DNA of 20,000 bases from an uncultured virus (IMG/VR IMGVR_UViG_3300042429_001351) (lineage: Duplodnaviria > Heunggongvirae > Uroviricota > Caudoviricetes), in the IMG/VR virus record IMGVR_UViG_3300042429_001351. The stretch is one strand, 5' to 3'. The position numbers were made by a program, and so were the translations under genes. Numbering within the stretch: the stretch's first letter is position 1; each line of letters starts with the position of its first letter. Positions 2,329-20,000 of the stretch are shown here, one piece after another. The notes under the pieces were generated by a model. That model searched no databases. It was not told the origin of the DNA and saw only the letters and a program-made list of their open reading frames with translations.

Positions 2329-4215
2329 ATGGCAATTCAATGGGGTGCATACGTTGGCCCTGCGTCAGGCTCAGGATTTAGTACTTCCAACAGGATGCGC
2401 GTTGGCGTTGAGCTTACCGCTTCAACTCCAGCGTCAGGTCTGGATACAACCAGCACCATAACTGCTCAGATGTACACCCAGAACGAATTGTCTGGTACAT
2501 CAAACTGGAATGATGCTCAAACACTGTCATCCGTTGCAAGCGTTGCTGGAGCCACATGGGGAGCGGGTGGTGCGGCTTTTACAAACCAGGAGTCAAACGG
2601 AATAACTGCTAGAGGTGTTCTTAAAACCTACACCTATACATACTCAACCTACGGTTCCAGCCCTGGAAATATCTCTTTCCAAGCAACTCTCGGTGGAGCG
2701 TTTAACGGCATCACTCCGACCGTGACTGCAACTCTTGCAATTCCCGCAAGACCTGTTACAACGACTACCACAACTACTACAACTACTACCACAACGACCA
2801 CACCAGCACCGCCGTTTTTCCCGCCAGAATTTACACCGGCAACGACTACAACAACGACTACCACTACGACGACTACGCTCCCTCCGGCTACTGCTCCAGG
2901 CGCACCAACAACAGTTCTCGGAACTGCTGGTAATGCTCAGGTTGCATTGTCTTGGACAGCTCCAGCTTCGAATGGTGGGGCATCGATTACCGATTATGTA
3001 GTGCAGTATTCTTCTGACTCGGGCTCAACATGGGCAACATTTGCTGACGGTACATCAACTGCAGCGTCCGCCACAGTAACGGGTCTGACGAACGGAACAA
3101 GCTACATATTCCGTGTCGCAGCAGTGAACAGTGTTGGGACTGGAAGTTACTCAACATCATCGTCGGCAGTGACGCCGGTAACTACGCCGGGGGCACCAGT
3201 AACGATTACCGCAACTCCTGGTAGTGGAGAAGTTGGATTGACATGGCTTGCCCCTGCATCAACAGGTGGGTCAAGCATCACTGATTATTCCGTTCAATAT
3301 TCTTCTGACTCGGGTGGAACGTGGAGCTTGTTTTTTGAGGGCGTGTCAACCGCAACATCAGCAACTGTTACAGGCCTGACGAACGGAACGAGTTACACAT
3401 TCCGTGTTGCTGCGACAAACAGTGTTGGGACTGGACCTTACTCATTGTCATCGTCGGCAGTGACGCCTTCTGCTGCAACAACTACGACTACAACCACCAC
3501 TACAACTGCTGCCCCTACGACGACTACAGCTACAACCGCTGCTCCTGGTGTGAGTATCTCCAAGGTTTGGAATGGTTCATCCTGGGTTGCTACAACCCCC
3601 CAGGTATGGAACGGAACGGCATGGGTGTCAGCAATATCCCGCGCATGGGATGGTATTCAATGGGTGGCTCCAGGGGCTACGACTACGACGGCTGCTCCAA
3701 CGACAACTACCACTACCACGACGACGCTTGCTCCAACGACTACAACAACGACTACCACTGCCGCCCCTACGACTACAACAACGACTACCACTGCCGCTCC
3801 TACGACTACGGCTGCGCCTACAACAACTGGAGCCCCTCCATGCTTCGGTTGTACTACTGCCTCGTGGGACGGTGTCACGTATTCATGCGATGGCACAATG
3901 AGTTACGAGTATTGGACGGCTGGATGTCCTGGATGTACAGGTGAAGGCGGATATAACGGAGCCTACAGAGACGGGAAGTGCGGTTACACGGCACCCGTGA
4001 CCACCGAGGCCACGGCTGCACCAGTTGTTTGCACTCCTTTCGACGGATATTCCTGGACTGGGGGCTATTACTATGGAGCACTCAACGAAGGTGGAGCGAG
4101 CTGTGCAACTTGGTGTAGCTGCAACCCAGTCACCAATGGCTATAGTCAATCTGTATGGAAAATATACGCCAAAGCCGGTTGTGGAAACGCCAACCTATTC
4201 ATAGGCTGTAGTTAA
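2329..4215 (+). CDS. Mucin-like Thr/Pro-rich virion protein with two fibronectin type III domains and a Cys-rich C-terminus
   Basis: T15 and T12 runs flank PAPPFFPPEF. There are two FN3 units (PGAP...V.L.W.AP...GG..ITDY.VQYS...TVTGLTNGTSY.FRVAA.N.VGTG.YS), (T)nAAP repeats, three W(N/D)GxxWV repeats and 12 Cys in the last ~125 aa. The start is 1 nt after the upstream stop. Confidence 0.8.
   Translation: MAIQWGAYVGPASGSGFSTSNRMRVGVELTASTPASGLDTTSTITAQMYTQNELSGTSNWNDAQTLSSVASVAGATWGAGGAAFTNQESNGITARGVLKTYTYTYSTYGSSPGNISFQATLGGAFNGITPTVTATLAIPARPVTTTTTTTTTTTTTTTPAPPFFPPEFTPATTTTTTTTTTTTLPPATAPGAPTTVLGTAGNAQVALSWTAPASNGGASITDYVVQYSSDSGSTWATFADGTSTAASATVTGLTNGTSYIFRVAAVNSVGTGSYSTSSSAVTPVTTPGAPVTITATPGSGEVGLTWLAPASTGGSSITDYSVQYSSDSGGTWSLFFEGVSTATSATVTGLTNGTSYTFRVAATNSVGTGPYSLSSSAVTPSAATTTTTTTTTTAAPTTTTATTAAPGVSISKVWNGSSWVATTPQVWNGTAWVSAISRAWDGIQWVAPGATTTTAAPTTTTTTTTTLAPTTTTTTTTAAPTTTTTTTTAAPTTTAAPTTTGAPPCFGCTTASWDGVTYSCDGTMSYEYWTAGCPGCTGEGGYNGAYRDGKCGYTAPVTTEATAAPVVCTPFDGYSWTGGYYYGALNEGGASCATWCSCNPVTNGYSQSVWKIYAKAGCGNANLFIGCS
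2758..2886 (+). repeat. Poly-Thr coding tract (ACN codons) with central PPFFPP
   Basis: 15 Thr codons at 2758-2802 and 12 more after PAPPFFPPEFTPA. All four ACN codons are mixed. Confidence 0.9.
2896..3474 (+). repeat. 291-bp tandem duplication encoding two FN3 domains
   Basis: Identical DNA blocks at a 291-nt offset, e.g. ctgacgaacggaac at 3085/3376, aacagtgttgggactgga at 3127/3418 and tcatcgtcggcagtgacgcc at 3157/3448. Confidence 0.9.
3478..3831 (+). repeat. (Thr)n-Ala-Ala-Pro mucin-type repeats interrupted by three W(N/D)GxxWV repeats
   Basis: Translation TTTTTTTTTTAAPTTTTATTAAP...KVWNGSSWV/QVWNGTAWV/RAWDGIQWV...TTTTTTTTAAP repeated. Confidence 0.85.
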
Positions 4216-4251
4216 GCGCAAATTCTATTCCTAGAATAAACAGGAGAATAC

Positions 4252-4488
4252 ATGTCAGACGCACCAAGATTCATCAACCCACGAGAAACACCAGACGGAT
4301 TCGAATGGTTTGCCTTTGTTGTAGATGGCGAAGTGGCTTGGTCGGAGCCTGTACCAATCCAAGAAGAAGCAAAAATTGCTGCACTTTTGTCTGGTGTGCA
4401 AGCGGTACGTCTTGCCGGAGATGAAAGATTCACGGTTATTTCTGGATACGGATACACGGATGGTGTATTCACTCCTCCGACTGTCTAA
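4252..4488 (+). CDS. Hypothetical protein (78 aa)
   Basis: Good RBS (CAGGAG) shortly before the ATG, with TAGAAT at 4232-4237 upstream. The ORF fills the gap on the coding strand. FAFVVDGEV...Y.DG.F..P resembles small phage proteins that follow fibre genes. Confidence 0.75.
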   Translation: MSDAPRFINPRETPDGFEWFAFVVDGEVAWSEPVPIQEEAKIAALLSGVQAVRLAGDERFTVISGYGYTDGVFTPPTV

Positions 4489-4506
4489 ATTTTCCTTATA
4501 TTGATG

Positions 4507-4521
4507 TAGGATGCCTTTATG
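4507..4521 (+). promoter_or_regulatory. Putative leaderless promoter (-10 TAGGAT, 6 nt, ATG)
   Basis: gatgTAGGATgcctttATG with no SD sequence. The same geometry recurs at other gene starts. Confidence 0.5.
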
Positions 4522-4749
4522 ACAAGTCCATGGCAAGAGTATAAAAAAAAGCTCGGCGACACACGTCCGTGGGATTTGGTAAACCCACATATTGAACACG
4601 TTTCCGAGGACGTTTCATCAGCGCGATACGCAATATGTGAAGCGTGTCCAAGTTTGCTAAAACTTACCCACCAGTGCAAAGAATGTGGTTGCTTCATGAA
4701 ACTAAAAGTAAAACTACCTGCAGCAGCTTGCCCGCTCGGCAAATGGTAG
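4519..4749 (+). CDS. Small Cys-rich metal-binding protein (DUF6171-like)
   Basis: RYAICEACP...THQCKECGCFM..K.KL..A.CPLGKW, with 6 Cys including two CxxC pairs. Confidence 0.75.
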   Translation: MTSPWQEYKKKLGDTRPWDLVNPHIEHVSEDVSSARYAICEACPSLLKLTHQCKECGCFMKLKVKLPAAACPLGKW

Positions 4750-5762
4750 TAAAAGAGAATTTAAATAAGTACAAGATAACCGATGCCCAAATAGACCCAT
4801 TCGGTTACTGTAACGCGAAGTGCTGGTTCTGCCCTGTCAGGTATCAAAAGAATCCCCCACATGCAGCAAAGCATATGCCGGTTGATTTATTGGACAAGAT
4901 ATTTTCTGAGTTGATAAAAGAAAAAGAAAAACCAAACGGTGTAGTTGAAGCAAACTTTAATCATTTTTATACCGCTCACTACAATGAGATTTTGCTATAC
5001 AAGCACTTGGACGAGATGCTGTATTTGGCCAAATGTTATGGGTTAAAAACCATGATACTTTCAAACGGTGTCAATCTCACCGAAGAAAAGGTGGAGATAC
5101 TCCAACGACACAAAGACGTTATAAGCGGAATCAATTTAAACATTCCCGCATTTGAGGATGGTTTATGGCAGGAACGTTCAGGAGTCACAAGATACGATTT
5201 TGACCATGTAAGACAAAACGTATTACGAACAATGGAAGCGTTTCCAGAATACACAGCAAATGGAGCGTTTTCAATAGGTGTAAATATACCCACCGCGCCG
5301 CACATGGAAGAAAATGGCGGACGGATGGAGATGCTCGAGAATGCACCAAAGATAGATTTGGACCCCTTGACAGGAGAATCTCCGACACAAGTCGCATTGG
5401 CTAAATCGCTATTTCCCGGTCTCACTGTTTATCCAGTGGAATCATTAATTGATAGGGCTGCGATACTGGCAGAACATAAAGTGATTGATAATGCCAAAGC
5501 AATTTTGAGGTACAACAAAGGCGATAAAACTAGAGTAGTTGGTTGTTCTAATGGAACAATTGGGCGAATATATGGCTGGCTGCATGTCAACGCCCTTGGG
5601 GAAGCGTTTCTCTGCTGTAACGATTATGACTTTGACTATACTTTTGGCAACATGAACGACAGCACACTCGACGAGATATGGCGTAGCGACGAACATGCCG
5701 CAATGATAGAGAGAGCCTTGGGTTCAATATGTGTGTCTTGCGCAAGCGCTATATGGAAATGA
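4743..5762 (+). CDS. Radical SAM protein with C-terminal SPASM/twitch domain
   Basis: CxxxCxxC (CNAKCWFC), YNEILL, ILSNG, and C-terminal C...G...LCCND....GN.....L.EIW.S...C..C. The start is moved to ATG 4743, overlapping the upstream gene end. Confidence 0.9.
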   Translation: MVVKENLNKYKITDAQIDPFGYCNAKCWFCPVRYQKNPPHAAKHMPVDLLDKIFSELIKEKEKPNGVVEANFNHFYTAHYNEILLYKHLDEMLYLAKCYGLKTMILSNGVNLTEEKVEILQRHKDVISGINLNIPAFEDGLWQERSGVTRYDFDHVRQNVLRTMEAFPEYTANGAFSIGVNIPTAPHMEENGGRMEMLENAPKIDLDPLTGESPTQVALAKSLFPGLTVYPVESLIDRAAILAEHKVIDNAKAILRYNKGDKTRVVGCSNGTIGRIYGWLHVNALGEAFLCCNDYDFDYTFGNMNDSTLDEIWRSDEHAAMIERALGSICVSCASAIWK

Positions 5763-5763
5763 T

Positions 5764-6687
5764 ATGGCATCGATATTCATACAAATACCTTCTTATAGGG
5801 ATTTTGAATTAAACAAAACTGTTGCCAGCGCAGTGACCAATGCGAGCGGAGCAAACAAGCTTTCGTTTGGTATTCATAACTGCATTTTGTTTGATGGCGA
5901 AATAGAAGTTAAAACAGATTACCCAGAATGGGTCACTATTAACTCGGCGACAAGTATTGCACCGCAAAACATAGGCCTACAGCAGGCAAGGTATTTAGCA
6001 AACGAGTTTTACGACGGAGAAGACTACTACCTTCAAATTGACTCGCACATGCGATTTTTCGAAAATTGGGACGCATCACTCATCAACGATATACGCTACT
6101 ATCAAAACCTGGGCTTGCCTAAGCCACTTATTACTCAGTATCCGCCAGCTTATACATACAACGACGACGGAAAAGAAAACATTCAATTCAATCAGCCGTT
6201 TTATCAATGTGGAATCTGGTTTGGCGAGAAGGTAGAAAATTTTAAGGAAACCCTAATTCCCACACAGCAAGCTCGGGTTCTTTTTGATACTTGTGGATTT
6301 ATTAAATCTGTTTCTGGCGGTTTTATATTCACACTCGGAAGTTTTGCAAAAGTTAAACCAAATCCAAAAATTGCCTTTTGGGGAGAGGAACCACTGATTG
6401 CCGCAAGGGCTTTTACTCATGGATTCGACCTGGTGATGCCCTTCTCTCACAATGTGTCTCATTTATATCACTCTCAACAGACATTTGCCAAAACACGTCG
6501 CCACCACATATGGGGTGATTTTTCAGAAATCTGGGGGATGATGGATGCTGAATCCAGAACAGAATACAAGAGAATATTCACCGAACGAATAATTGGCGAA
6601 GGGGCATTAGGGACAGAACGCACCCTAGATGAATACGAGGAGTTTTCTGGTTTAAATTTCAGAGACGGAACCATAACCTCATTATGA
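5764..6687 (+). CDS. GT60-family (Gnt1/TcOGNT-like) UDP-GlcNAc:polypeptide N-acetylglucosaminyltransferase
   Basis: Motifs IFIQIPSYRD.EL..T, G...AR..A...Y.GE.Y.LQIDSHMRF...WD..LI, IT.YPP.Y, SGGF.F, F.GEE....ARAFTHG.D and HLY are characteristic of the Pfam GlcNAc/GT60 family. ATG 5764 is 1 nt after the rSAM stop. Confidence 0.85.
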   Translation: MASIFIQIPSYRDFELNKTVASAVTNASGANKLSFGIHNCILFDGEIEVKTDYPEWVTINSATSIAPQNIGLQQARYLANEFYDGEDYYLQIDSHMRFFENWDASLINDIRYYQNLGLPKPLITQYPPAYTYNDDGKENIQFNQPFYQCGIWFGEKVENFKETLIPTQQARVLFDTCGFIKSVSGGFIFTLGSFAKVKPNPKIAFWGEEPLIAARAFTHGFDLVMPFSHNVSHLYHSQQTFAKTRRHHIWGDFSEIWGMMDAESRTEYKRIFTERIIGEGALGTERTLDEYEEFSGLNFRDGTITSL

Positions 6688-7262
6688 AGAATCTCAAAAA
6701 GATAAGTGACGATATATATATTGTAAACCTTGTTAGCGGTCGACTTGCTGCGAGGATTATGGATTCCATAAAATTACTCGAAAAGAAAGAGCCATGTGGA
6801 GGAAGTGAACGAAACCAGTTTACGACACATTCCATAAGTGATTCCGCCTGTGTTGGTGGAATAAGACTTACAACAATTCTGCAATCGATATTCAAGAGAC
6901 TAACAAATCAATACTTTCTGAGTACTGGCGTAAGACTAGAAGTTCCATCGTTCCCGAATCAAAGCTGCAATATCAAGAGTCAAGTCAAAGGCCAATCACA
7001 CGGGGTGCATACCGATGGAGGGGACAAGGATTACGGAATTGGCAGGATTCTCCACTCGTCGGTTATATGCCTAAATGATGACTACGAGGGCGGGAGCACG
7101 CAGTTTTACCTAACTGGGACAATGGAAGAACCAAACATTGATATTGACATAAAACTCAAGGCAGGTCAAGCATTAATATTTGACGCGAATCTGAACTATC
7201 ATGGGGTTACCGAAGTCCTATCTGGGACTAGGTTTAGCTTGATTCAATTTTGGAGAGAGTAG
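6684..7262 (+). CDS. 2OG-Fe(II) oxygenase, prolyl-4-hydroxylase-like
   Basis: HTD...SSVICLNDDYEGG.T.F...G.ALIFD....HGVTEVLSGTRFS, i.e. HxD..H..RxS. ATGA overlap with the GT gene. Confidence 0.9.
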   Translation: MKNLKKISDDIYIVNLVSGRLAARIMDSIKLLEKKEPCGGSERNQFTTHSISDSACVGGIRLTTILQSIFKRLTNQYFLSTGVRLEVPSFPNQSCNIKSQVKGQSHGVHTDGGDKDYGIGRILHSSVICLNDDYEGGSTQFYLTGTMEEPNIDIDIKLKAGQALIFDANLNYHGVTEVLSGTRFSLIQFWRE

Positions 7263-7264
7263 TC

Positions 7265-8335
7265 ATGAATACAGATAGCGATAACAGATTCTACGGAACG
7301 ACACCAGATGTCCGCAATGACGAAACTGTGTCCGAAATCTTTAACATGCAATTTGAAGATTTGGGTGGTGGGGTAATTCGTTTCCCGGCAGCAATAGATG
7401 TTGACAAAGACATGCTTTTACCGTATATAGATAAAAACTCAAAATCCGCGCACGAACAAAGATGGACGTGGGCCAAGGATGAAGAAGGCAATGACTACGC
7501 AATAAACGAAGATGGCAACAAGTTTTCTCCAGAACAGGTAAAGATGGTTCCAGTAAGACTGCTTGAAGTAGTTAACTCTGGGACAGAGCCAGAGATGATA
7601 GAAGTGTTTAGATACTGGGAAGACACTATTTACAAGTGTCTCCTGCGGTACATAGATATATTCCCAATGGTCCTTGGAACAATCTGGTGGAGAACCAAGG
7701 GTCACGTAATGCGCTATGACGAGGGGGCATTCCTTGGCATACACAACGACAACGACTCAAATTACAGGGCCACAGGTGGCGAGCGATTTGTGCCGCGTGG
7801 ACAAATACAGATGCGTCAAGTTGTGGCGGTGATGTTCTACATTAACGATTGTGTTGAAGATGAATCAGAACTAGATGGCACAAACTTCACTGGTGGGGAA
7901 TTAGTTTTCCCATATCTCGGAATAAAGAACACTCCAAAAACCGGGGATGTTGTTATCTTCCCTGCAAACTACATTGCAACACATGGAGTTGAGCCAGTGA
8001 AAAAGGGCGTCCGATATGGATACCTTGAATTCTTCAGTCAAGGAAGCAGTCACGATGAAGTTGGAATTAACGTTTCAGAACCAGATAAATGTGATGGCTG
8101 GTGTAGGCCACACTTCATAGATGCGCTTTATGACGACTACAAGCACTACTGCAAGCAAACCGAATTCATGGGGAATGGTGATTCAGCAAAAGACGCAAAC
8201 GGAATGTTTAAAGCAAATCCGGTTTATCAAAACAGAACGCTTGAAGGTGAAAACGGTCTAAAGAAGGCTTATTCACATTCCCAGGTTGTATACGACAATG
8301 AGCAGCGCGGCAGGGAACACAGCAGCTTGTACTAA
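7265..8335 (+). CDS. 2OG-Fe(II) oxygenase (LGGGV clade, paralogue 1)
   Basis: HND...YIND...GGELVFPYL...P..GDVVIFPANYIATHGV..V..G.RY. ATG 7265 is preceded by GGAG. Confidence 0.9.
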   Translation: MNTDSDNRFYGTTPDVRNDETVSEIFNMQFEDLGGGVIRFPAAIDVDKDMLLPYIDKNSKSAHEQRWTWAKDEEGNDYAINEDGNKFSPEQVKMVPVRLLEVVNSGTEPEMIEVFRYWEDTIYKCLLRYIDIFPMVLGTIWWRTKGHVMRYDEGAFLGIHNDNDSNYRATGGERFVPRGQIQMRQVVAVMFYINDCVEDESELDGTNFTGGELVFPYLGIKNTPKTGDVVIFPANYIATHGVEPVKKGVRYGYLEFFSQGSSHDEVGINVSEPDKCDGWCRPHFIDALYDDYKHYCKQTEFMGNGDSAKDANGMFKANPVYQNRTLEGENGLKKAYSHSQVVYDNEQRGREHSSLY

Positions 8336-9066
8336 GTGTTTTCTACGATACCAACGTGAACATAACCCTGCCCGGAATGCTGAACATCTGCTGCAAGACT
8401 ATTTAGCTTGTTTTCTTCCTGAACCTCCATCTTTGCATCCCCTTGGCAGAACCACTGCAGATAAGAATTCCTTACCCCGGATGTGATTGGCTCAACTTCA
8501 TGACAGCCCATAAATGACGACGGATATATCAAAACCGAGCCAACTTTTGGACGTACGGTTATACCCCACGGCCTGAATCTTATATTTCCTCCCTCGTATT
8601 CCTCATTGAGGGCCATTGAACCAGTAAGGGTGTTGTGGAGCGGGAAGGTGTTCAGAACATTCCCTTCCTTGTCGTAAGGTAGGGCACAGTCGCTATGCGG
8701 TCCAATAGTTTGACCAATTGAGTACGAAGCAATCTGCCCACCTGTTCTCCAGCCAATACACTCAATTGCTACTGGGAACGAGCGACAATATTCAATTAGG
8801 CATCTATAAATGCCGTCATTAATCAAGGTTGTTATTTCTTTTGTGAATTCGGAGCCGTATGAAAGTCCATTAAACCTGGTTGGCATTTTTAATACGTGCT
8901 CTTGCGTAACCGCGTAACCGCCATCATTGGTTAATGACTCAACATTCACGCCATGCGTTGCATCTAGATTTTCAGCAAAAATTCTTTCAAGATATGCCTC
9001 GAAATTGGATGCGTCTACCACATCTTCAAACAGCATTACCCCGTTCCCAAGATGCTTCACAATCAT
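8332..9066 (-). CDS. 2OG-Fe(II) oxygenase (LGGGV clade, paralogue 2)
   Basis: HSD...LNEEYEGG.I.F...P..GSVLIYPSSFMGCHEVEPITSGVRNS. Confidence 0.9.
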   Translation of the reverse strand: MIVKHLGNGVMLFEDVVDASNFEAYLERIFAENLDATHGVNVESLTNDGGYAVTQEHVLKMPTRFNGLSYGSEFTKEITTLINDGIYRCLIEYCRSFPVAIECIGWRTGGQIASYSIGQTIGPHSDCALPYDKEGNVLNTFPLHNTLTGSMALNEEYEGGNIRFRPWGITVRPKVGSVLIYPSSFMGCHEVEPITSGVRNSYLQWFCQGDAKMEVQEENKLNSLAADVQHSGQGYVHVGIVENT

Positions 9067-9935: not shown

Positions 9936-9956
9936 ACAGTGTATGATAGCCCAATG
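9933..9956. promoter_or_regulatory. Putative bidirectional leaderless promoter with overlapping -10 elements
   Basis: CAT-acagtgTATGATAgccca-ATG. On the + strand, TATGAT (9942-9947) lies 6 nt before ATG 9954. On the - strand, TATCAT (9948-9943) lies 7 nt before ATG 9935. The two starts have 18 nt between them. Confidence 0.6.
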
Positions 9957-13311: not shown

Positions 13312-14042
13312 GATTCTCCTTTGACGACAATAGTCATTCCGTAAAACAGAGGAACGTGATACACGCTGCAGCCGGATATCCTCTTAAGCGCTTCGTGGTA
13401 TCCCCAGATTGGAGTTGCCTTTGTGTGATTGTTGTACAGAAACATACTGTCAGAGGTATTTTGGATTATCAGAATCCCGTTATCCTCGAGCCTGTCGACA
13501 AAGGCGCTAACAGGGATTAGTGGATTCTCCATATCCTGCGACCAAGAGAGCATCATGTCGTACTTATTGTTTACATGCTTTTCAAAATCCTGCATTGTAA
13601 CGACGTCATAGTCGTCAATTGGGTCTTGGAACTTTTCATACAGACTAAGTTTTTTGTTGTTGAGAAAGGTAATGTGGGCCCCATGTATCGACTTAAAAAC
13701 CTTTAATCTGAACCTATCGAGACCACCTGAAATTGCCAATACATTTTTCTTCTTTGAGATATCCATAATCCCAAGAATTAGAAGAATCGACATCCATTGA
13801 GCCTGACCATACGCACTTGAAAGATTTGGTCTTGGATAATGGACAACGAACTCATAATCGCTCGCACCGCCGGTGGCAATATTCCTTCTATCAATACCAA
13901 CCGTATTGAAAAGATACTCGGCTATAGCGACAGAGTGACCACCATCTTCGCGGTTGCATTGGTCTGCATATTCTTCCCAATTAAACTGAAGAGAACTAAA
14001 ATCAAAAGAAACTTCAGGTTCATACCTTTTATCTTGTTCCAT
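13308..14042 (-). CDS. Probable class I SAM-dependent methyltransferase-fold protein (divergent)
   Basis: KKNVLAISGG (degenerate motif I), KYDMML (motif IV region) and VDRLEDNGILIIQN (L..GG.L++ strand). There is no clean GxGxG. Confidence 0.45.
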   Translation of the reverse strand: MEQDKRYEPEVSFDFSSLQFNWEEYADQCNREDGGHSVAIAEYLFNTVGIDRRNIATGGASDYEFVVHYPRPNLSSAYGQAQWMSILLILGIMDISKKKNVLAISGGLDRFRLKVFKSIHGAHITFLNNKKLSLYEKFQDPIDDYDVVTMQDFEKHVNNKYDMMLSWSQDMENPLIPVSAFVDRLEDNGILIIQNTSDSMFLYNNHTKATPIWGYHEALKRISGCSVYHVPLFYGMTIVVKGES

Positions 14043-14310
14043 TTGTCACCTCGTATAGAGCAGCCTGCACATCAAACCAAGCACGGCGGACATTTCTTGT
14101 CAGTGTGATATTTTGTCTTTTTATATAGTCCTTAACACTGGAATCAATTTCGGTGTCATGGTCATATCGGTATCTGTCTCGAATTGCGTTTACGCAATCG
14201 TCTATTGTGATTTCGTCAAAACGCGATTCATCAAACCCGAGTATGAACAAGTATGCTGCAAGCTGTTCTGAACGATACGCCAAATCGGCAACTGGGTCAT
14301 ACCTGCTCAT
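14029..14310 (-). CDS. Hypothetical protein (93 aa)
   Basis: Overlaps both neighbours in the same operon. Starts MSRYDP. Confidence 0.7.
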   Translation of the reverse strand: MSRYDPVADLAYRSEQLAAYLFILGFDESRFDEITIDDCVNAIRDRYRYDHDTEIDSSVKDYIKRQNITLTRNVRRAWFDVQAALYEVTNGTR

Positions 14311-14488
14311 CTTTTTCCTTTTTCACATCAAACATTGCTACACCTTGACACATTGATACAGGCTTACCAGCAACATAATAGACACCGGTGCTTGAGTCCC
14401 ATTCAATAATCTCGTTATCCCACTCTTCGGCGTCAGTTATTGCTTCACCTTTTCTGGTGCTCATCTTGAAGTCTTGTGGCTCATCCAT
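14297..14488 (-). CDS. Hypothetical small acidic protein (63 aa)
   Basis: Translationally coupled between neighbours. An alternative start MSTRKG at 14464 is possible. Confidence 0.6.
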   Translation of the reverse strand: MDEPQDFKMSTRKGEAITDAEEWDNEIIEWDSSTGVYYVAGKPVSMCQGVAMFDVKKEKDEQV

Positions 14489-14696
14489 CTTTAAGTGCTT
14501 CCAATGCGGAGTACTCGTTTGACATAAGCCTAAAAGCGTTGTACTCTATTGTTCCTTCTTCGTGCGTATTTTCCCCAGAATACACGGGGGTCATACCCTC
14601 GCTCGCCATCAACTGACTCATCTCCCCTATTGACGCGGTCAGAAATCGTGCAGCCCTATTCTTTGCCATTAGAGGGTCATATTTTCCAAGTTTCAT
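14481..14696 (-). CDS. Hypothetical protein (71 aa)
   Basis: ATG overlaps the upstream gene end. Starts MKLGKYDP. Confidence 0.65.
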   Translation of the reverse strand: MKLGKYDPLMAKNRAARFLTASIGEMSQLMASEGMTPVYSGENTHEEGTIEYNAFRLMSNEYSALEALKDG

Positions 14697-15310
14697 AAAA
14701 GTTCACGTATCCTCTCGTGCAGGCCAACAAGCTTATCAGTCGTATAAAAAGATGCAAGGGTGTACCTATCCCCACTGAGAACAGGCTTTACCTCGTGTCT
14801 AAACTCGGAGCCGCTTGGGAAGAAAACTAGCTGATTTGCTTTCGGCTTAATCATCAGGTCAAGTTCTTCAAAATACAACTCACCCCCATCGTAATCAGCA
14901 TTGAGGTAGAGGATTGATGAGTACTCATTTAGGACTTCAGACATCTGGTTGTTTGGGTCGTAGTTTCTGAGTGGCTCTGGATTGCCCCCGTAGTATCCTT
15001 CTGCATCTGCGTGCATTTTAAGATACGAGCCAGGCAGGTACTTTCTTAAATACGGTTCATACAAGAAGCACAACCTCCTACCCACCGTGGCGGATACGAG
15101 CGCCAATGCTCTAGATGAGACGTCTATGCGTTCCTGGCAGTCTGGTCTTTCGGTATATCTTTCACCGTCTAGATACTCCTGCCAGGTGTTATCCCAATGA
15201 ATGAATTCCTTGCACTTATAAAGAATTTTTGACAATTCGTCACTCGTTGCAAAGTTGTCAACAACATGAACATTTCTTATCAATAAATCTTTATAATCAA
15301 GCATCGACAT
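14693..15310 (-). CDS. 2OG-Fe(II) oxygenase, prolyl-4-hydroxylase-like
   Basis: RKYLPG..LKMHAD...YSSILYLNADYDGGELYF.....IKP....LVFFP....F.HEV..V.SG.RYT. Confidence 0.92.
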   Translation of the reverse strand: MSMLDYKDLLIRNVHVVDNFATSDELSKILYKCKEFIHWDNTWQEYLDGERYTERPDCQERIDVSSRALALVSATVGRRLCFLYEPYLRKYLPGSYLKMHADAEGYYGGNPEPLRNYDPNNQMSEVLNEYSSILYLNADYDGGELYFEELDLMIKPKANQLVFFPSGSEFRHEVKPVLSGDRYTLASFYTTDKLVGLHERIRELL

Positions 15311-15312
15311 TA

Positions 15313-16017
15313 TTATTGTCCTGGAATTTTTAGTTTTGGCATTCCCTTGAAAGTGGGTCCAATTTTATTCCCGTCAGCGTCAAGGCCAGTCTTTATTCCT
15401 TTTGTCCATGTCCAAGGATTCTCTTCGTTGTTTTTCATCTTCACATCGCCATACTTTGCGCGGCTCTTCATAAGCTCCATGTCATCTGAAAGGTTGCCGA
15501 TGGTGAATTCAACATTCTCCAAAACGGTACTTTCAAATATTGAGAAAAACATGAATGGCATTCCAGCCTCAAACAAGACAGGTTCACCAATCTTGTTTAT
15601 CTTCCAGTTCATTTGGAACTCATCGGGCCACCAACTACTTGGAATGATTGCAGAGAGTGCTTGTGCGTCATCTCTTATGTAGTTAGGCGAACCACCAATA
15701 AATGTCTCGTACCCTGGTTCGGTTCCGAAAATCCAACCGACAGAGAAAGAAACCATTCCGATTATTCCACCGTAGGCAATCTGTCTGCCGCCGTATGAAC
15801 CGCCTTCAAGTATTGTTGGGACTGTATTACCGCCGTCCCACTGGGCAATAACGTCTTGCGGAAGAACAAGTTCCCAGCCATACACATTGGCTACCGTCAT
15901 TGGCAGGCATTGATATGCATGTTTTTTGTATGTTTCATCCATCCAGTCACGATTGATTCTGGATTGTCGAATCTCTGGTGGGTTATCGTGTGTTCGTTTT
16001 AGATTCACCTTAACCAT
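15313..16017 (-). CDS. DUF6065-like protein
   Basis: R.WMD.T...HAYQCLPMTVANVYGWELVLP.D....WDGG, GG.PNY..D....L..II...W.P..F.MNWK and F..GMPF, recalled as the DUF6065 signature. Confidence 0.7.
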   Translation of the reverse strand: MVKVNLKRTHDNPPEIRQSRINRDWMDETYKKHAYQCLPMTVANVYGWELVLPQDVIAQWDGGNTVPTILEGGSYGGRQIAYGGIIGMVSFSVGWIFGTEPGYETFIGGSPNYIRDDAQALSAIIPSSWWPDEFQMNWKINKIGEPVLFEAGMPFMFFSIFESTVLENVEFTIGNLSDDMELMKSRAKYGDVKMKNNEENPWTWTKGIKTGLDADGNKIGPTFKGMPKLKIPGQ

Positions 16018-16552
16018 AAAGAATTGCCATCTCCTCTGCTAGGACGCGGTTTAATAATTTTGCTGATTTTGGTAGCGTTCTTATTCTCCAAAAACCACCA
16101 AACAAATCTTTCACTGCATCCGCATGCGGACCAGACAGGTACATTGTTTTTTCGCCAATGTCGTCACTTGATGGTTCGGTAATTGGCCAACCGCGTAGGG
16201 CTCCCTCCACATACTTGACCCCTTTGGGAACGAGTATGTTTTCAAGGTCGGCGTCATTTGAATCAGCCCACATTGCGTTCAGGTCGATATATATGCCTTT
16301 GAAATTCCGTGAAACTATTTCCTGGCCAAGCTCAAACGGGTCGAAGTTCTTTGCAATACAAAAAAAGAACTCACTCTTTTCTACGAGCGCATCAAACGTG
16401 AGAACGTCCTGTATCCCAAACTTTTCCGCACGGGCCTTAGTTTCGTCAGAGCGGCCCTCGGACGCCCATATGCATTCATGACCGTACAAAGAGCAAGAGT
16501 ACGCGACGGTTGAACCCATTGCCCCAGGAGAGTAGATTCCTACGACCGCCAC
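16010..16552 (-). CDS. NAD(P)-binding Rossmann domain of the 6-phosphogluconate/3-hydroxyisobutyrate dehydrogenase-like family, lacking the C-terminal helical domain
   Basis: VGIYSPGAMGS.VA...G....WASEGRS.ET..RA...G, YIDLNA, YVEGAL.G.P and MYLSG..A. It is only 180 aa. The GTG start overlaps the upstream TAG. Confidence 0.75.
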   Translation of the reverse strand: MAVVGIYSPGAMGSTVAYSCSLYGHECIWASEGRSDETKARAEKFGIQDVLTFDALVEKSEFFFCIAKNFDPFELGQEIVSRNFKGIYIDLNAMWADSNDADLENILVPKGVKYVEGALRGWPITEPSSDDIGEKTMYLSGPHADAVKDLFGGFWRIRTLPKSAKLLNRVLAEEMAILYG

Positions 16553-17217
16553 TACTGACTAAGTGGAGCCTTTACTCCATCGTAGCTGCCCTTGATGTCG
16601 TGGTTTCTGTCGTTGTAGTCAAACATTGTTACCGCTGAGTACTTGGTTCCACTTATCACGGGTTTTGCTGCGTGGGCATAGATAAAGGTTGACGGGAACA
16701 TAACAATGTCTCCAGCTTCGGGCTTAAATGTCAAGTCCAAGTATGGAAACCATAGTTCTCCACCTTCGTAGTCATCGTTGAAATATCCGACAGAAGAAAC
16801 TGTACATGTGTAAGAAAACCCATGGTCTGTGTGCACCTGGAAGTGTTGGCTTTCTTTGTACCGAATAAAGTTAATGGCTTCCATGTATTCCATGTTTATG
16901 TTGTAGCGACTCTGGTAATCAGTCATGCACGCACGTATGGCACCAGCCGTGTCTGCATATATATTTTTTAGCTCTGCAAATTGTGGATACTGTTGAAGGT
17001 ATTCAATATGTGTTTCCCCAATTTTGCAGTCAACACAGTCTCGGTACTCTGGCATTTTTTGCGAGTATCCAACAAGGGCTTCGTTCCACTTGAATAGACC
17101 TACCGTACTATTTCCTATAGTCGCCTCTAGACGATTAATTATGTCCAATTCTTTTGGTAGTGCATTTTTGTAGAGAAGAATCCCTAGGCGCGGGTCGCTG
17201 AGTATTTCGGTTTCCAT
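16552..17217 (-). CDS. 2OG-Fe(II) oxygenase, prolyl-4-hydroxylase-like
   Basis: FIRY...QHFQVHTDHG...VSSVGYFNDDYEGGELWFPYL...KPEAGDIVMFPS.FIYAHAAKPVISGTKYS. Confidence 0.92.
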   Translation of the reverse strand: METEILSDPRLGILLYKNALPKELDIINRLEATIGNSTVGLFKWNEALVGYSQKMPEYRDCVDCKIGETHIEYLQQYPQFAELKNIYADTAGAIRACMTDYQSRYNINMEYMEAINFIRYKESQHFQVHTDHGFSYTCTVSSVGYFNDDYEGGELWFPYLDLTFKPEAGDIVMFPSTFIYAHAAKPVISGTKYSAVTMFDYNDRNHDIKGSYDGVKAPLSQ

Positions 17218-17229
17218 AGTCCCAGTCTA
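17215..17229 (-). promoter_or_regulatory. Putative leaderless promoter (-10 TAGACT, 6 nt, ATG)
   Basis: The - strand reads TAGACTgggactATG. Confidence 0.5.
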
Positions 17230-17271
17230 TACATATCGGAGATGTCCATACGCCACCTGGAGATACGTGAT

Positions 17272-18126
17272 TTAGAGCGGAAGGAATGCTTCTGCAAAAT
17301 GTATCTGCCTATGAATCCCGGGGTGGACCGAATCGACAGCCTCATCCCAGAACTCCACATTATCTCCGTCGTGCTCACACCCGTCAATCATTAACGATTC
17401 ATTTGGGTTGATGAAATTTTCAATCCCAAGTACGGAATAGACGCGATTATCTACAGGGTCCCACGAGTAAAACTTAAAATTTATTTCTTCTATGGAGCAG
17501 AAATCCTGGAGATTCTTTAAAGAGTTCAATGAGTTTTGGATAACAATATCTAAAGATATCTCTTTACCTCTTGAGCGCCCTGGGAAGAAATTTTCATGAG
17601 ACAGAAACTCACGGTCTCTTTTCGACCAGGCGAACCTCTCCCTGTACGGGGGTGTGTCTACGCTTATCCATTGTCTACCTGCTTCTGGGGCGAGGAAAAG
17701 TAAATGTTTTGGTTTGCCATAAATCTTAATGAATTCAAAGACAGCTGTAGTAATCTGCTGAATCGAGCCGCCAGGTATTCCTAGTTGGTTAAAAGAAAGT
17801 TGTGTTCTTTCGCCGACGACATACGGCCAGGAGAGACCAGTGCTTAGTCCTATTCCGGCAGTGAAAGAGCATCCTGCGGCAAGTATTTCAGCATTTCTTA
17901 TGAATTCTTTACCTATAATCCCATTTTTGTTTACGTGGTATTTTACGTTCTCATGCGGTTTATGTGAAGCAGAATCATTCGTGTCCAAGCCAGATTCTTT
18001 GTAACTAAAAAAACTTGGATTAAATTGTGCTTCACCGCAAAAATCTATAACGTCTTTCGAAAACATGTTTTCGTAAACGTTTTGCAAACGCTTTTCGTAT
18101 ATTTTTCGATAATGGTTTTCGCGCAT
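17272..18126 (-). CDS. SGNH/GDSL-hydrolase-like phage protein (start uncertain: ATG 18126 or TTG 18156)
   Basis: ILAAGCSFTAGIG...SWP...FNQLGIPGGS (blocks I and II) and C-terminal DSVHPG...AEAF (DxxH). Confidence 0.65.
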   Translation of the reverse strand: MRENHYRKIYEKRLQNVYENMFSKDVIDFCGEAQFNPSFFSYKESGLDTNDSASHKPHENVKYHVNKNGIIGKEFIRNAEILAAGCSFTAGIGLSTGLSWPYVVGERTQLSFNQLGIPGGSIQQITTAVFEFIKIYGKPKHLLFLAPEAGRQWISVDTPPYRERFAWSKRDREFLSHENFFPGRSRGKEISLDIVIQNSLNSLKNLQDFCSIEEINFKFYSWDPVDNRVYSVLGIENFINPNESLMIDGCEHDGDNVEFWDEAVDSVHPGIHRQIHFAEAFLPL

Positions 18127-18187
18127 CCTGTCAAAGCCCAATGTTTTTACCCGCAACCTTCACAAACGCTTCATCCATTACTGCAGT

Positions 18188-18850
18188 CTATACGGTAGTA
18201 AAGAATCCTTGTGACATATAGCGGGTACCGGAGATAATCGGCCTCACGCCATGGGCCATATCTTCGTGCCAAGTGTGCGACCAAATCAGTAAAGAATTAG
18301 CTTTTGGTTTTATCGATAGTCCAAGGATTGGCATGTATAACTCACCGCCCTCGTAGTCGTCATTGACGTAGTAGACGCATGAAAAGTCAGTGACTGCGCC
18401 AGCCTTATCCAAAAACACGCCGTCGCAGTGAAGGCCCATATTGTCGCCTTCTTTGGCCATCGACAACCAGGGACCGCTTTCAAAATAGGTCTTATTCCCG
18501 TAAGTGTCTTTTATTGTGTCTCTGACATTTATCAACATCCACGACAGAATTTTGTTAACCTTCTCATCTGCTGGTATATGCATGGAAATTTTGTAATTAT
18601 CCCCGTTTGTCATGTAGCCACCAGAACTAATTTCATCCCTGGTTGGCAAGAAAGAGGTTTGGAAGGTTATCTCTGGGTTAAGAGAATGGGTCTTTTTCTT
18701 CCAACCAATCTCTGGGTTATGACCAACAAACTCAAATTTATCTTCATTATTCTCGCAATATGCTTTTACTACTCCCCATTCATCTTGTGGTAGGTAGTCA
18801 ACGAACAAACCTATTCTTGGCGTATTGGTAAGAAGAGGTTCGTGTCCCAT
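18188..18850 (-). CDS. 2OG-Fe(II) oxygenase, prolyl-4-hydroxylase-like
   Basis: GLHCD...FSCVYYVNDDYEGGELY.P.....IKP..NSLLIW.....HGVRPIISGTRY. Confidence 0.92.
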   Translation of the reverse strand: MGHEPLLTNTPRIGLFVDYLPQDEWGVVKAYCENNEDKFEFVGHNPEIGWKKKTHSLNPEITFQTSFLPTRDEISSGGYMTNGDNYKISMHIPADEKVNKILSWMLINVRDTIKDTYGNKTYFESGPWLSMAKEGDNMGLHCDGVFLDKAGAVTDFSCVYYVNDDYEGGELYMPILGLSIKPKANSLLIWSHTWHEDMAHGVRPIISGTRYMSQGFFTTV

Positions 18851-18851
18851 A

Positions 18852-19469
18852 TCATTCGACCGTAAAGAATGCTGGGGATGTGTATCGCTCGCCGCTCGTG
18901 ACCATTTTCACACCATGTAGATAGTTGATGTCCCCAGGGTGGATTACGGCAAGACCAGGCTCTGGCTTTACGACGATGTCGTGTTCTGGATAGTAAAGTT
19001 CTCCGCCTTCGAAGTCGTCGTTCCAATAGAAAAGCGAATTGATGTCGTATGTTGGGAACGGATTTGGTGAGCCATCATTCATCTGCTTATCCGCATGTGG
19101 GCGTTGTTCAATCCCACCAAACCACCGAACTATGCATGGTGGCCGTTTCTCTAGTTTGCAATTAAAAATCTCACCTGCAGTCACAGCCATCTTGTCGAGA
19201 TAGAAATCAATAAGGTCGTACACCTCTTTGTTGATTCTCTCCAAAATAGTCGAAGTACATTGCCTATTGTTCCAATACGCAGCATTATAAGTGCATACGC
19301 CGTTTTCGTCAAAGATGTCCGTGTCCGAACCATTTGACCATTCTTTTATGGTCCTAGCAAATGACGAGATGATAGATGCATCTTTTTCATCAATGAAGTT
19401 CTTTATGACGTGGATATTTTCTGGGCCAGTGCCGAAAAATCCAGGTTCTATCTTCCATGGTGAATTCAC
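18852..19469 (-). CDS. 2OG-Fe(II) oxygenase, prolyl-4-hydroxylase-like
   Basis: VRW..G.EQRPHADK...SLFYWNDDFEGGELYYP.....KP.PG.AV.HPGD..YLHGV..VTSGERYT. GTG start. Confidence 0.92.
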   Translation of the reverse strand: MNSPWKIEPGFFGTGPENIHVIKNFIDEKDASIISSFARTIKEWSNGSDTDIFDENGVCTYNAAYWNNRQCTSTILERINKEVYDLIDFYLDKMAVTAGEIFNCKLEKRPPCIVRWFGGIEQRPHADKQMNDGSPNPFPTYDINSLFYWNDDFEGGELYYPEHDIVVKPEPGLAVIHPGDINYLHGVKMVTSGERYTSPAFFTVE

Positions 19470-19481
19470 GGAATAAGACTA
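19467..19481 (-). promoter_or_regulatory. Putative leaderless promoter (-10 TAGTCT, 6 nt, GTG)
   Basis: The - strand reads gatgTAGTCTtattccGTG, sharing the gatgTAG context of the 4507 site. Confidence 0.5.
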
Positions 19482-19496
19482 CATCACCCTTAAGGC

Positions 19497-20000
19497 TTAA
19501 TTGAGCCCCAGATATTCATCGATATCAAGACTGATTAGGTCAAGGGACACGTCTACACCCTTTTCCTTTACCTGTGGGTCAATCCATGGTTCGCCATCAT
19601 CTTTTGGACCTACGAATGGCTTCCAGTCTTTTTCACCATTGTCTAGAAACTTCTCATCAAGCCACGGATATATTTCGCCAAAGACGTCTCTTTCGCCGAG
19701 CAAGAAACCATTTGAGTATCTCTTGGTTTTGGTTCCAGTTCTGTCAATCAAGAACTTTGTGAAGTTCCCCGTAATTGGAAAGGCGCGTTTTGCGTCTTTT
19801 GGAACATCTTCAGAAATACCCGACCAAGGCACTGATTCTCCAGTATATGGAACACCAAGTTTATTTAGTGTCGCGTTATAGCCCTCTGTTAGGTAGTACC
19901 AAAGAGTATTCTGTGTCTGGGATATTTCCGTATTTGGAACAAAATCGGACTCATATGTAACTTTGTCAACTCTGCCATTAGTGAGTTCTGAGAACTCAAA
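19497..20000 (-). CDS. Second glutathione peroxidase-fold protein (5'-truncated by the window edge)
   Basis: The frame is open to 20000: FEFSELTNGRVDK...LWYYLT...PITGNFTKFLIDRTG...RY, matching the GPx C-terminal I.WNF.KFL+DR.G motif with W replaced by G. Confidence 0.7.
   Translation of the reverse strand, partial: FEFSELTNGRVDKVTYESDFVPNTEISQTQNTLWYYLTEGYNATLNKLGVPYTGESVPWSGISEDVPKDAKRAFPITGNFTKFLIDRTGTKTKRYSNGFLLGERDVFGEIYPWLDEKFLDNGEKDWKPFVGPKDDGEPWIDPQVKEKGVDVSLDLISLDIDEYLGLN

Follow-up and report, generated by a model that had tools for sequence, protein, structure and literature searches.

The 20,000-nt window analysed here, from an uncultured lake phage of ~169 kb, holds two convergent gene cassettes facing each other, not a single pathway. 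The phage has a tail sheath gene, and WhiB points to an actinobacterial host. From gene content and structure models, the phage probably decorates its own fibres chemically. We lean, with a little more than even confidence, towards direct O-HexNAc modification of Thr on one fibre protein and hydroxylation of Pro and aromatic residues on another.

The plus-strand cassette A (2329–8335) consists, in order, of a gene for a Thr-rich, Cys-tipped Fn3 protein, a 78-aa gene, DUF6171, a BtrN-like radical SAM enzyme, a GT60 glycosyltransferase and two 2OG-Fe(II) oxygenases. Cassette B, on the minus strand, contains the other nine of the 11 oxygenases, pointing toward cassette A, with the dUTPase-fold protein DUF6065 and GPx genes, and is headed past the window end by an Fn3-(PP[F/Y]F)18 gene (Table 1). 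A first-pass annotation had described one tightly packed island, uninterrupted by capsid or replication genes. The packing was confirmed (gaps of -14 to +54 nt), and a Pfam scan of 28 window ORFs matched no capsid or replication family. However, the island divides into two cassettes, the minus-strand block runs on past the window end, as far as a third GPx gene and the Fn3-(PP[F/Y]F)18 gene, and the GT60 gene, described as directly following the fibre gene, is separated from it by the 78-aa, DUF6171 and radical SAM genes. The listed Thr-rich Cys-tipped gene, GT60, radical SAM/SPASM enzyme, 11 oxygenases and two GPx folds (19497–20387 below cut-off) were confirmed, whereas support for the Rossmann, SGNH and methyltransferase assignments was weak (E 0.02, 0.014 and 0.45); DUF6065, DUF6171 and several small genes had been left out. 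Three IMG/VR contigs share an identical 20.9 kb surrounding GT60, which rules out an assembly artefact. No close cultured relative was found: GenBank phages gave four GT60 matches at 26% and no match to DUF6065. No description of such tract-plus-enzyme cassettes was found in the literature searched.

Table 1 Genes of the two cassettes and their flanks. Positions are those of the window unless a contig is named.
Position	Strand	Feature	Evidence or remark
1041..2327	+	Tail-fibre connector-like protein, upstream context	PHROG 677 E 5e-34, phrog_892 E 1e-21; 1-nt gap to 2329-4215 gene
2329..4215	+	Candidate substrate A: 2xFn3, poly-Thr stalks (aa 144-183, 384-503), one PPFFPP, 12-Cys tip
4252..4488	+	Small conserved protein (78 aa) between fibre gene and DUF6171	Co-occurs with Cys tips
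4519..4749	+	DUF6171, six Cys	Pfam; tracks Cys-rich fibre tips
4743..5762	+	Radical SAM with short SPASM/Twitch-like domain, BtrN-like; likely start 4743	Pfam radical SAM+SPASM (4644-5762)
5764..6687	+	GT60/PF11397, predicted soluble polypeptide HexNAc-transferase	Thr-tract-associated lineage
6684..7262	+	2OG-Fe(II) oxygenase, P4H-like	Pfam; weak Tet_JBP match below cut-off
7265..8335	+	Long P4H-like oxygenase	Pfam; kept in relatives without Thr tract (L339, L436, L433, 54-56%)
8332..9066	-	P4H-like oxygenase	Pfam; stop overlaps plus-strand cassette (convergence point)
9063..9935	-	P4H-like oxygenase	Pfam
9954..10277	+	107-aa protein	Homologous to C-terminal part of Rossmann-domain fusion in L146
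10274..11134	-	P4H-like oxygenase	Pfam
11131..11742	-	GPx-fold protein	Ala where other two paralogues carry Cys
11739..12644	-	2OG-FeII_Oxy_5/TIGR02466-like oxygenase (HxH)	Additional C-terminal domain
12637..13311	-	P4H-like oxygenase	Below Pfam cut-off
13308..14042	-	Conserved methyltransferase-like protein (weak)	NCBIfam E 0.003, PDB E 0.45; 24 distinct sequences in related loci
14029..14696	-	Three small genes (93, 63, 71 aa)	93-aa family: 25 distinct sequences in related loci
14693..15310	-	P4H-like oxygenase	Pfam
15313..16017	-	DUF6065, dUTPase-like fold	PPFF-cassette marker
16010..16552	-	Rossmann NAD(P)-binding domain (weak)	Pfam E 0.022
16552..17217	-	P4H-like oxygenase	Top PDB match bacterial prolyl 4-hydroxylase (3itq)
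17272..18156	-	SGNH/GDSL-like protein (weak)	E 0.014
18188..18850	-	P4H-like oxygenase	Pfam
18852..19469	-	P4H-like oxygenase	Below Pfam cut-off
19497..20000	-	GPx-fold gene, 3' part in window	Whole gene to 20387 (G000:C1:48282-49172); below cut-off
G000:C1:49169-49747	-	Third GPx gene, outside window	Upstream of 19497-20387 gene
G000:C1:49751-50554 (= window 20966-21769)	-	Candidate substrate B: Fn3-type protein ending in 18 PP[F/Y]F units, outside window	Heads cassette B

The 2329–4215 protein contains 154 Thr in 628 residues, with six runs of 8–15 Thr in which all four Thr codons are intermixed, and its 12 Cys all lie within residues 505–627. It had been called Thr/Pro-rich; the Thr part holds, but its 40 Pro make up just 6% and PPFFPP occurs once. 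The PHROG tail matches fall mostly across the Fn3 part, the gene abuts the connector-like gene, and no hydrophobic signal or TM segment was found in the protein. The six Cys of DUF6171 comprise five invariant positions plus one (37 sequences). Proteins encoded upstream of DUF6171 have at least 5 Cys in their last 80 residues in 47/54 cases, and the family tracks Cys-rich fibre tips (10/11 versus 6/59). Relatives of the 78-aa protein match the unannotated phrog_14370 in 6 of 15 cases, and an Atlas search with it gave no lead.

The GT60 protein matches the GlcNAc transferase family PF11397 (E 5e-36, 125 bits against a Pfam cut-off of 21), and its structure model (pLDDT 91) matches ppGalNAc-Ts first (E 1e-8). 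It is a single domain of 307 residues with a GT-A fold related to GT27 ppGalNAc-T, lacking the ricin lectin domain. D93 and H95 (DxH), H233 (third His) and W206-G207-E208-E209 (WGEE) are invariant in 30 homologues; we take these to be the GT27 motifs, with DxH and the third His binding metal. The radical SAM enzyme carries CxxxCxxC plus additional Cys in its C-terminal part. Its only PDB match, of low similarity, is the aminocyclitol dehydrogenase BtrN (4m7t, E 3e-4). This family is GT-adjacent in 19/21 clusters and fused to a GT-like domain in two loci (L230/L278).

Nine of the 11 oxygenases identified with Pfam score above cut-off. Ten have the HxD...H iron triad and a basic 2OG-binding residue, while 11739–12644 has HxH. 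No orthologue of 6684–7262 at 40% identity or more was found in 7 related loci.

We compared tracts and enzymes across related phages, where labels come from HMMs built in this analysis. PPFF tracts have a P4H within 3 kb downstream in 48/68 loci and upstream in 2/51, and a GT60 in 2/68, while poly-Thr tracts have a P4H in 3/51 and some GT in 28/51. Loci anchored on DUF6065 carry PPFF-type units upstream in 19/19 and downstream in 0/24; the oxygenase array, earlier assigned to the 2329–4215 protein, thus tracks a different gene, that of the (PPFF)n protein outside the window. When loci were anchored neutrally on DUF6171, Pro-rich proteins were associated with P4H (23/30 versus 7/24, p 0.0008), Thr-rich proteins with GT60 (5/12 versus 4/42, p 0.019) and Pro-rich proteins not with GT60 (p 1). 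A DUF6171 tree offered only 3 independent pairs, so that relatedness may still account for the co-variation. Pro stands at +3 after 156/247 Thr runs, versus 10–24 at other offsets. In one locus with a PPYF-type tract (L437), just the C-terminal half of the window's GT60 lineage is retained. The proposed synteny of GT60, P4H and radical SAM genes with tract genes stood for GT60 with Thr tracts, P4H with PPFF and radical SAM beside GT, but GT60 was rare near PPFF. Conserved gene order in many contigs gives good support to the broader claim that the phage uses its enzymes to modify fibre-region proteins of its own.

GT60 polypeptide alpha-GlcNAc-transferases initiate mucin-type O-glycans in Dictyostelium and Trypanosoma cruzi, and on Skp1 of Dictyostelium and Toxoplasma hydroxyproline is formed before a cytosolic pp-alpha-GlcNAc-T acts (both from excerpts of PMC8724618 and PMC3188802). 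The first-pass annotation had followed the second route, Pro to Hyp to Hyp-GlcNAc on the 2329–4215 protein; the Thr/Ser mucin-initiating branch described in these excerpts was absent from it. We regard as unlikely a series like that of PhyA and Gnt1 on Skp1, with the oxygenases making hydroxyproline in this protein (or in the PPFF protein, acting in trans) and GT60 adding GlcNAc to it. The phage does combine a cytosolic GT60 with P4H-like enzymes in one genome, two P4H-like genes directly follow GT60 on the same strand, the fibre has 40 Pro, and most Thr runs are closed by Pro. However, the tracts with which GT60 co-varies are not those of the hydroxylases. The window's GT60 clade has a Thr tract in 40/45 members and a hydroxylase directly upstream in 8/45; in the ~300-aa set, 33/36 have a Thr-rich ORF upstream and 2/35 have one downstream, and a P4H on the same strand lies close by in 8/30. 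A tree joining the window's GT60 to the Pro-associated group was rejected marginally (p-AU 0.047), the group having been named after the tree was seen. A divergent PF11397 lineage has P4H upstream in 5/5 rows, and the Pro-Hyp-GlcNAc route fits such lineages of other phages better than the window's. P4H-free GT60 loci have hydroxylases elsewhere in 3/5 contigs tested; these could act in trans, so the series keeps some probability, and this counts against our reading. No Skp1 family match was found among the 28 window ORFs and 70 further G006/G000 proteins scanned.

It is also quite unlikely that the enzymes act mainly on the host envelope or host proteins, or on a Thr-rich phage protein whose N-terminus is hydrophobic (G000:C1:72151-76479), with fibre adjacency reflecting a hypervariable region. 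Cyanophage GT clusters have been interpreted as host-surface modifiers (PMC12801897), the complete copy G006 carries an orphan oxygenase/carbamoyltransferase cluster, and in L131, L142 and L147 GT60 has a Thr-rich gene in divergent position nearby. This view is opposed by the strong upstream/downstream asymmetry and residue matching, by near-identical phages (L431 and L433, 94% over 9.8 kb) that differ jointly at tract and enzyme block, and by the absence of any strongly hydrophobic TM or signal segment from the island proteins.

An island for DNA or nucleotide modification appears very improbable. Here the oxygenases would oxidise bases, with the GT, methyltransferase and dUTPase-fold protein completing a hypermodified base, or would serve DNA repair or 2OG control. 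DUF6065 resembles dUTPase structures (Z 9–10, rmsd 2.7–5.2 over 116–128 residues, 7–16% identity), 6684–7262 has its weak Tet_JBP match and several oxygenases are labelled 'DNA endonuclease' in PHROG; but DUF6065 gave no dUTPase sequence match at E<=10 and tracks PPFF tracts, the GT fold is that of a polypeptide-GT, and the island sits between tail-region genes. The solved relatives of the oxygenases are likewise protein hydroxylases or PKHD proteins: the profile matches PiuC (PKHD-type, ranked first), P3H1, prolyl 4-hydroxylases and lysyl hydroxylase (LH3), with no AlkB/TET entry among 24 structures matched. These include PDB 5c5t (E 3e-8), which we take to be the PBCV-1 prolyl 4-hydroxylase. 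Cyanophages also carry many oxygenase paralogues, proposed for DNA repair or 2OG control, which favours this view; the excerpts of PMC3037559 and PMC9146016 describe no substrate tract for them. Very improbable too is a RiPP-like system in which the PPFF repeat is cleaved to short peptides and tailored into a diffusible product: a repeated core precedes numerous tailoring genes, joined in some relatives by sulfotransferase, TauD, PhyH or carbamoyltransferase, and some tract proteins have a Hint domain, but no peptidase or exporter family was matched in the cassette, the repeat forms one protein with Fn3/PASTA-like domains, encoded behind fibre-like genes, and its units adjoin without spacer.

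For Thr glycosylation and Pro/aromatic hydroxylation on separate proteins, we propose that the soluble GT60 would transfer HexNAc (GlcNAc by family) from a UDP-sugar onto Thr of the poly-Thr stalks, by analogy with the protist mucin-initiating enzymes. Those (CAZy) share PF11397, a ppGalNAc-T-like fold without lectin domain and a Thr-rich partner protein, whereas the phage enzyme is soluble, phage-encoded and adjoins its candidate substrate. The BtrN-like enzyme probably oxidises or epimerises the sugar, and DUF6171 and the 78-aa protein may serve the Cys-rich tip in folding, metal or disulfide handling. In cassette B, the Fe/2OG oxygenases would hydroxylate Pro, and probably Phe/Tyr, in the (PP[F/Y]F)18 tail, with GPx proteins as possible redox support. 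We infer a virion location for both substrates, and the likely outcome is fibres that are stiffer, protease-resistant or surface-tuned. Several observations count against this reading: a P4H is missing within 3 kb of the tract in 20/68 PPFF loci, only 6/51 poly-Thr loci have GT60, no Thr tract reaches the threshold used here in 5/45 of the GT60 clade, a second tailoring cluster in G006 has no low-complexity gene beside it, and eleven oxygenases exceed the obvious need of a three-residue alphabet. The P4H of chlorovirus PBCV-1 acts on Pro-containing peptides, yet hydroxyproline was not detected in virions (excerpt of PMC7019647), which also counts against it; PBCV-1 has one such enzyme, compared with 11 here, nine of them behind a (PPFF)n tract. 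Mycobacteriophages Che8, Corndog and Myrna glycosylate capsid and tail tube (Freeman et al. 2023, cited in PMC12363180). Actinobacterial phage GTs acting on virion proteins would be common to both, while the excerpt of PMC12363180 mentions no low-complexity tract or hydroxylase array.

More tentatively, and with somewhat less than even confidence, lake actinophages may share a modular, residue-matched tailoring code: Thr runs would call for a Thr-type GT60 and a sugar-editing radical SAM enzyme, Pro/Phe tracts for oxygenase arrays, accompanied in some phages by a separate Hyp-type GT60 lineage, and Cys tips for DUF6171, tract and enzyme block being swapped jointly between close relatives. If true, phages would have a counterpart to the mucin and hydroxyproline-rich glycoprotein chemistry of eukaryotes, and the orphan phage 2OG oxygenases would gain named substrates.

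The fibre protein of cassette A carries two Fn3 domains, and the gene families named in the first-pass annotation were confirmed: a radical SAM/SPASM enzyme, a PF11397 (GT60) transferase, GPx folds and eleven 2OG-Fe(II) oxygenases. Its SGNH, Rossmann and methyltransferase calls were weakly supported, and its layout, one island behind the fibre gene, did not hold, since strands and gene order differ. Genes lie on the plus strand from 2329 to 8335 only and from 8332 on are minus, except for one encoding 107 aa. The minus-strand block contains 9 of the 11 oxygenases and, traced beyond the window, starts with a 267-aa Fn3-type protein that ends in 18 PP[F/Y]F units (12 PPFF and 6 PPYF, codons mixed) and whose gene itself sits behind long fibre-like genes. 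Thus, the island consists of two cassettes meeting tail to tail, A behind the poly-Thr fibre gene and B headed by the PP[F/Y]F gene. Strand and synteny led us to reject a single pathway behind the Thr gene, and mixed codons a microsatellite origin of the low-complexity tracts.

Features of the phage contig (G000), its complete record (G006) and related loci
Record	Position	Strand	Feature
Window	2329-4215	+	Fibre A, poly-Thr stalks, Cys tip
Window	5764-6687	+	GT60
Window	6684-7262	+	Cassette A enzyme
Window	9954-10277	+	Corresponds to one part of a 284-aa protein of locus L146
Window	16010-16552	-	Corresponds to the other part of that L146 protein
Window	10685-20000		Largely ~75% identical to locus L011, where a PPFF gene comes first
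G000:C1	28786-48785		Window
G000:C1	49751-50554	-	Fn3-(PP[F/Y]F)18 head gene of cassette B
G000:C1	58794-59381	-	Single P4H-like gene, two genes downstream of the third Fn3 gene
G000:C1	59927-60973	-	Third Fn3 gene, 27-residue poly-Pro run, short Cys tip
G000:C1	68827-76479		Two unannotated GT-like genes (by reading), methyltransferase, epimerase, then a 1442-aa Thr-rich protein
G000:C1	79226-79471		Ferredoxin-like gene (by reading of the ORF)
G006:C1	10497-11144		Proteasome-subunit-like gene adjoining WhiB
G006:C1	52199-58602		Tailoring cluster: carbamoyltransferase, SGNH-like, two 2OG oxygenases, AurF-like, methyltransferase
G006:C1	61198-72261		Giant polyvalent protein, 3687 aa
G006:C1	84549-91961		Giant polyvalent protein, 2470 aa
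L213	3898-4812		Unannotated ~305-aa GT-A-like protein
L450	7635-9426		Desaturase-like membrane genes at the GT60 position

The window lies inside a 79.5 kb contig; upstream of it are genes resembling those for tail sheath, tape measure and baseplate, named by reading ORFs and not from a scan. The 169 kb record of the same phage, rated 100% complete and essentially identical where compared, adds a capsid gene and WhiB, the latter indicating an actinobacterial host. All 24 runs listed with this DNA come from lake water metagenomes, none being an RNA data set, and 11 could be its source. A promoter and terminator scan gave counts no higher than those of shuffled sequence (29 vs 35.9 and 16 vs 18.3). 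The giant proteins carry DnaJ, NUDIX, zeta-toxin-like P-loop and exonuclease domains and a weak ATLF-domain match. The 1442-aa Thr-rich protein has a hydrophobic N-terminus, and its gene cluster may be a further, third cassette for glycosylation, one that would act on a host-surface protein.

We searched viral contigs with a GT60 alignment and retrieved the best 80 of 528 relatives. Among these, one gene order recurs: a Thr-rich gene with a Cys tip comes first, then a small gene, DUF6171, in some loci the radical SAM gene, and GT60. When ~300-aa GT60s were clustered at 90%, Thr-rich ORFs (at least 13 Thr in 30 residues, within 4 kb) stood upstream in 33/36 clusters and downstream in 2/35, and a same-strand prolyl-4-hydroxylase-like (P4H) gene nearby in 8/30; clustering at 70% gave 23/24, 1/24 and 5/21. 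The ~415-aa GT60s of the same sample showed no asymmetry (10/17 upstream, 8/18 downstream) and no P4H in their loci (n=16). A poly-Thr pattern scan returned 125 stretches, 80 with flanks. Using GT profiles seeded from these same loci and including two unannotated GT-like families, a GT of some family followed the tract within 3 kb in 28/51 cases (GT60 in 6/51, P4H in 3/51), and no GT preceded it (n=56).

The GT60 model (pLDDT 91) has polypeptide GalNAc-transferases as its first matches; a sequence-profile search of the PDB gave nothing useful, and in GenBank phages GT60 was found in four jumbo phages at 26% identity. Pro stands at +3 after the Thr run in 156 of 247 runs (35 substrates, not pattern-selected), a position at which ppGalNAc-Ts (GT27) favour Pro. 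The available part of PMC2936419 supports an effect of neighbouring Pro on ppGalNAc-T, and that effect only. In the accessible portions of PMC8724618 and PMC3188802, GT60 is the protist initiator of mucin-type glycans and the Skp1 enzyme a cytosolic relative.

The radical SAM enzyme has BtrN as its sole PDB match, adjoins a GT in 19/21 clusters (a figure inflated by enrichment for GT60-fetched loci) and in L230 and L278 forms a fusion with a GT-like domain. Sugar editing is therefore its likelier role, and cross-linking of the Cys tip, found upstream in 10/21 clusters, is less likely. A tail-fibre assembly chaperone role for the 78-aa protein, suggested by a motif, found no support in Pfam, PHROGs or Atlas. 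The GT-A-like family of L213 often directly follows poly-Thr genes, has relatives in L214, L216, L218, L220, L224, L227, L241 and L267 and provides the radical SAM fusions of L230 and L278; Atlas leads to HPAT (PF23452, 10% of members) and DUF7164. Desaturase-like genes (first PF00487) take the GT60 position in the close relatives L450 and L443.

For cassette B, a PPFF-coding pattern scan found at least 122 stretches, 80 with flanks, and 87 anchors were clustered into 75. P4H and GT60 calls in related loci rest on profile HMMs built in this analysis. Among the matches listed, a P4H-like gene lay within 3 kb downstream of the tract in 48 of the 68 clusters whose downstream flank reached 3 kb or more, leaving 20/68 without, and upstream in 2/51; GT60 was nearby in 2/68. 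The reciprocal DUF6065 scan (best 80 of 495 relatives, 33 clusters) placed at least three PPFF-type units upstream on the same strand in all 19 clusters with at least 7 kb upstream, and downstream in 0/24; only the window phage's cluster had GT60 in its representative. One seeming exception in this set, G001, has an array headed by an Fn3-(FAPPGF)n-Hint gene. A Hint-like domain also ends some tract proteins in place of the Cys tip (L062, L074, L163, L580).

The 24 PDB matches of the oxygenase profile include PiuC/PKHD proteins, lysyl hydroxylase and both prolyl 3- and prolyl 4-hydroxylases; none is an AlkB or TET entry. DUF6065 is modelled with a dUTPase fold (pLDDT 94), and thus may have a nucleotide role; it had no match in GenBank phages, and a sequence-profile search of the PDB gave nothing useful. 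Five bacterial MAG contigs (L583-L587) with DUF6065 and P4H-like genes, three with a called PPFF gene, are probably binned phage DNA.

As an anchor, DUF6171 selects neither tract nor enzyme. Its best 80 of 600 relatives gave 54 usable clusters (8 loci without an upstream gene, one without a call and one too-short cluster were dropped), with a Cys-rich tip on the upstream protein in 47. Within this sample, P4H occurred in 23/30 clusters with a Pro-rich tract vs 7/24 otherwise, GT60 in 5/12 with a Thr-rich tract vs 4/42 otherwise, and the crossed pairs showed no association. A second count of 60 rows, with baseplate-anchored loci added and rows differing in a trait kept apart, gave 27/33 vs 10/27 for Pro-rich tracts and P4H, and 6/15 vs 1/45 for Thr-associated GT60s, whose lineage labels were assigned after the tree. 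Three independent pairs on the DUF6171 tree ran in the predicted direction, too few to reach significance.

Natural swaps were also found. Loci L431 and L433 share 94% identity along 9.8 kb that runs into the fibre gene, and part at the tract, where L431 has Thr/Pro units and L433 has PPSF units. After coming together once more they part a second time across the enzyme block; in L431 this block holds P4H, radical SAM and a GT60 of the window type, in L433 P4H together with a distant GT60. L437 has a PPYF tract and the distant GT60, and what it keeps of a window-type GT60 is the C-terminal half alone, at 83% identity across 115 residues; L339 and L436 are without tract and GT60 there and retain the long oxygenases. 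A quick tree of 79 sequences, with long-branch warnings, placed the window GT60 in a 49-row group with a Thr tract in 40/45 and upstream P4H in 8/45 scorable rows; no Thr tract was called by threshold inside the clade for L131, L143, L431, L175 and one L183 enzyme. Five PF11397 proteins forming a group of their own had P4H upstream in 5/5 and a Pro-rich tract in 4/5, and the originally proposed Skp1-like route, Pro hydroxylation and then GlcNAc on hydroxyproline, may therefore exist there. Two distant PF11397 lineages (L427, L433, L367, L437, L183; L062, L344, L348, L402) lie after Pro-rich or Pro/Thr genes, in many cases with P4H upstream, and are candidate hydroxyproline-type GT60s in phages.

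Short PASTA-like PPFF head genes of relatives appear to need a +1 shift (L009, L024, L047, L055, L057, L059, L061, L065, L067, L072, L080, L088, several of L518-L577, and L585). An ATG frame of ~20-45 codons runs into the short PPFF segment in 31 of 34 distinct cases, overlapping at CGGA in 29 and CGGT in 2. CGG accounts for 3/1090 Arg codons of enzyme genes in 19 shift-type loci vs 34/769 in 8 window-like loci, and L586 has an in-frame version of the head gene. These features make the relatives candidates for a conserved recoding event that uses a rare Arg codon. No such shift is evident in the genes of the window: CGG is in frame 44 times in G000, and 0/4 candidate frameshift sites there look credible.

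Gene content, folds and residue-matched co-variation were observed; a virion location of the tract proteins is what we infer from position and weak tail matches. We propose that, in the host cytoplasm late in infection, GT60 would add HexNAc to the Thr stalks and the radical SAM enzyme would edit the sugar. DUF6171 and the 78-aa protein would handle the Cys tip, the oxygenases would hydroxylate Pro, perhaps Phe/Tyr, of the PPFF tail, and the oxygenase adjoining GT60 may act on the small number of Pro residues in fibre A. Stiffness, protease or grazer resistance and adhesion are candidate purposes. We give this scheme as a whole slightly better than even credence. P4H occurs elsewhere in 3/5 contigs with a P4H-free GT60 locus, the other two being less than half complete, so hydroxylases could act in trans. 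Against the scheme, the G006 tailoring cluster by the capsid gene is without an adjacent low-complexity gene, and PBCV-1 virions gave no detectable hydroxyproline although the virus has a P4H, according to the available text of a review (PMC7019647).

Multi-copy phage 2OG oxygenases and glycosyltransferases are classed as auxiliary metabolic genes. In the available parts of the sources, DNA repair or 2OG control is proposed for multi-copy phage 2OG oxygenases (PMC3037559, PMC9146016) and host-surface change for phage glycosyltransferases (PMC12801897); host-dependent tail methylation is reported in phage (PMC13445384), and virion glycosylation is phage-encoded in mycobacteriophages (as cited in PMC12363180). 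Phage-encoded virion glycosylation and a viral P4H are thus already known. We found no description of tract-matched cassettes in a literature search that covered few subscription journals and no supplements and screened listings on their titles and opening abstract lines. For each of the two enzyme types the locus offers candidate substrates short enough to synthesise, together with natural swap pairs, which makes a long-open question testable in vitro. If the scheme is true, mucin-type initiation and peptidyl hydroxylation would extend to phage fibres, these loci would be a source of small soluble O-HexNAc transferases and hydroxylases, and such genes ought not to be counted as host-metabolism genes.
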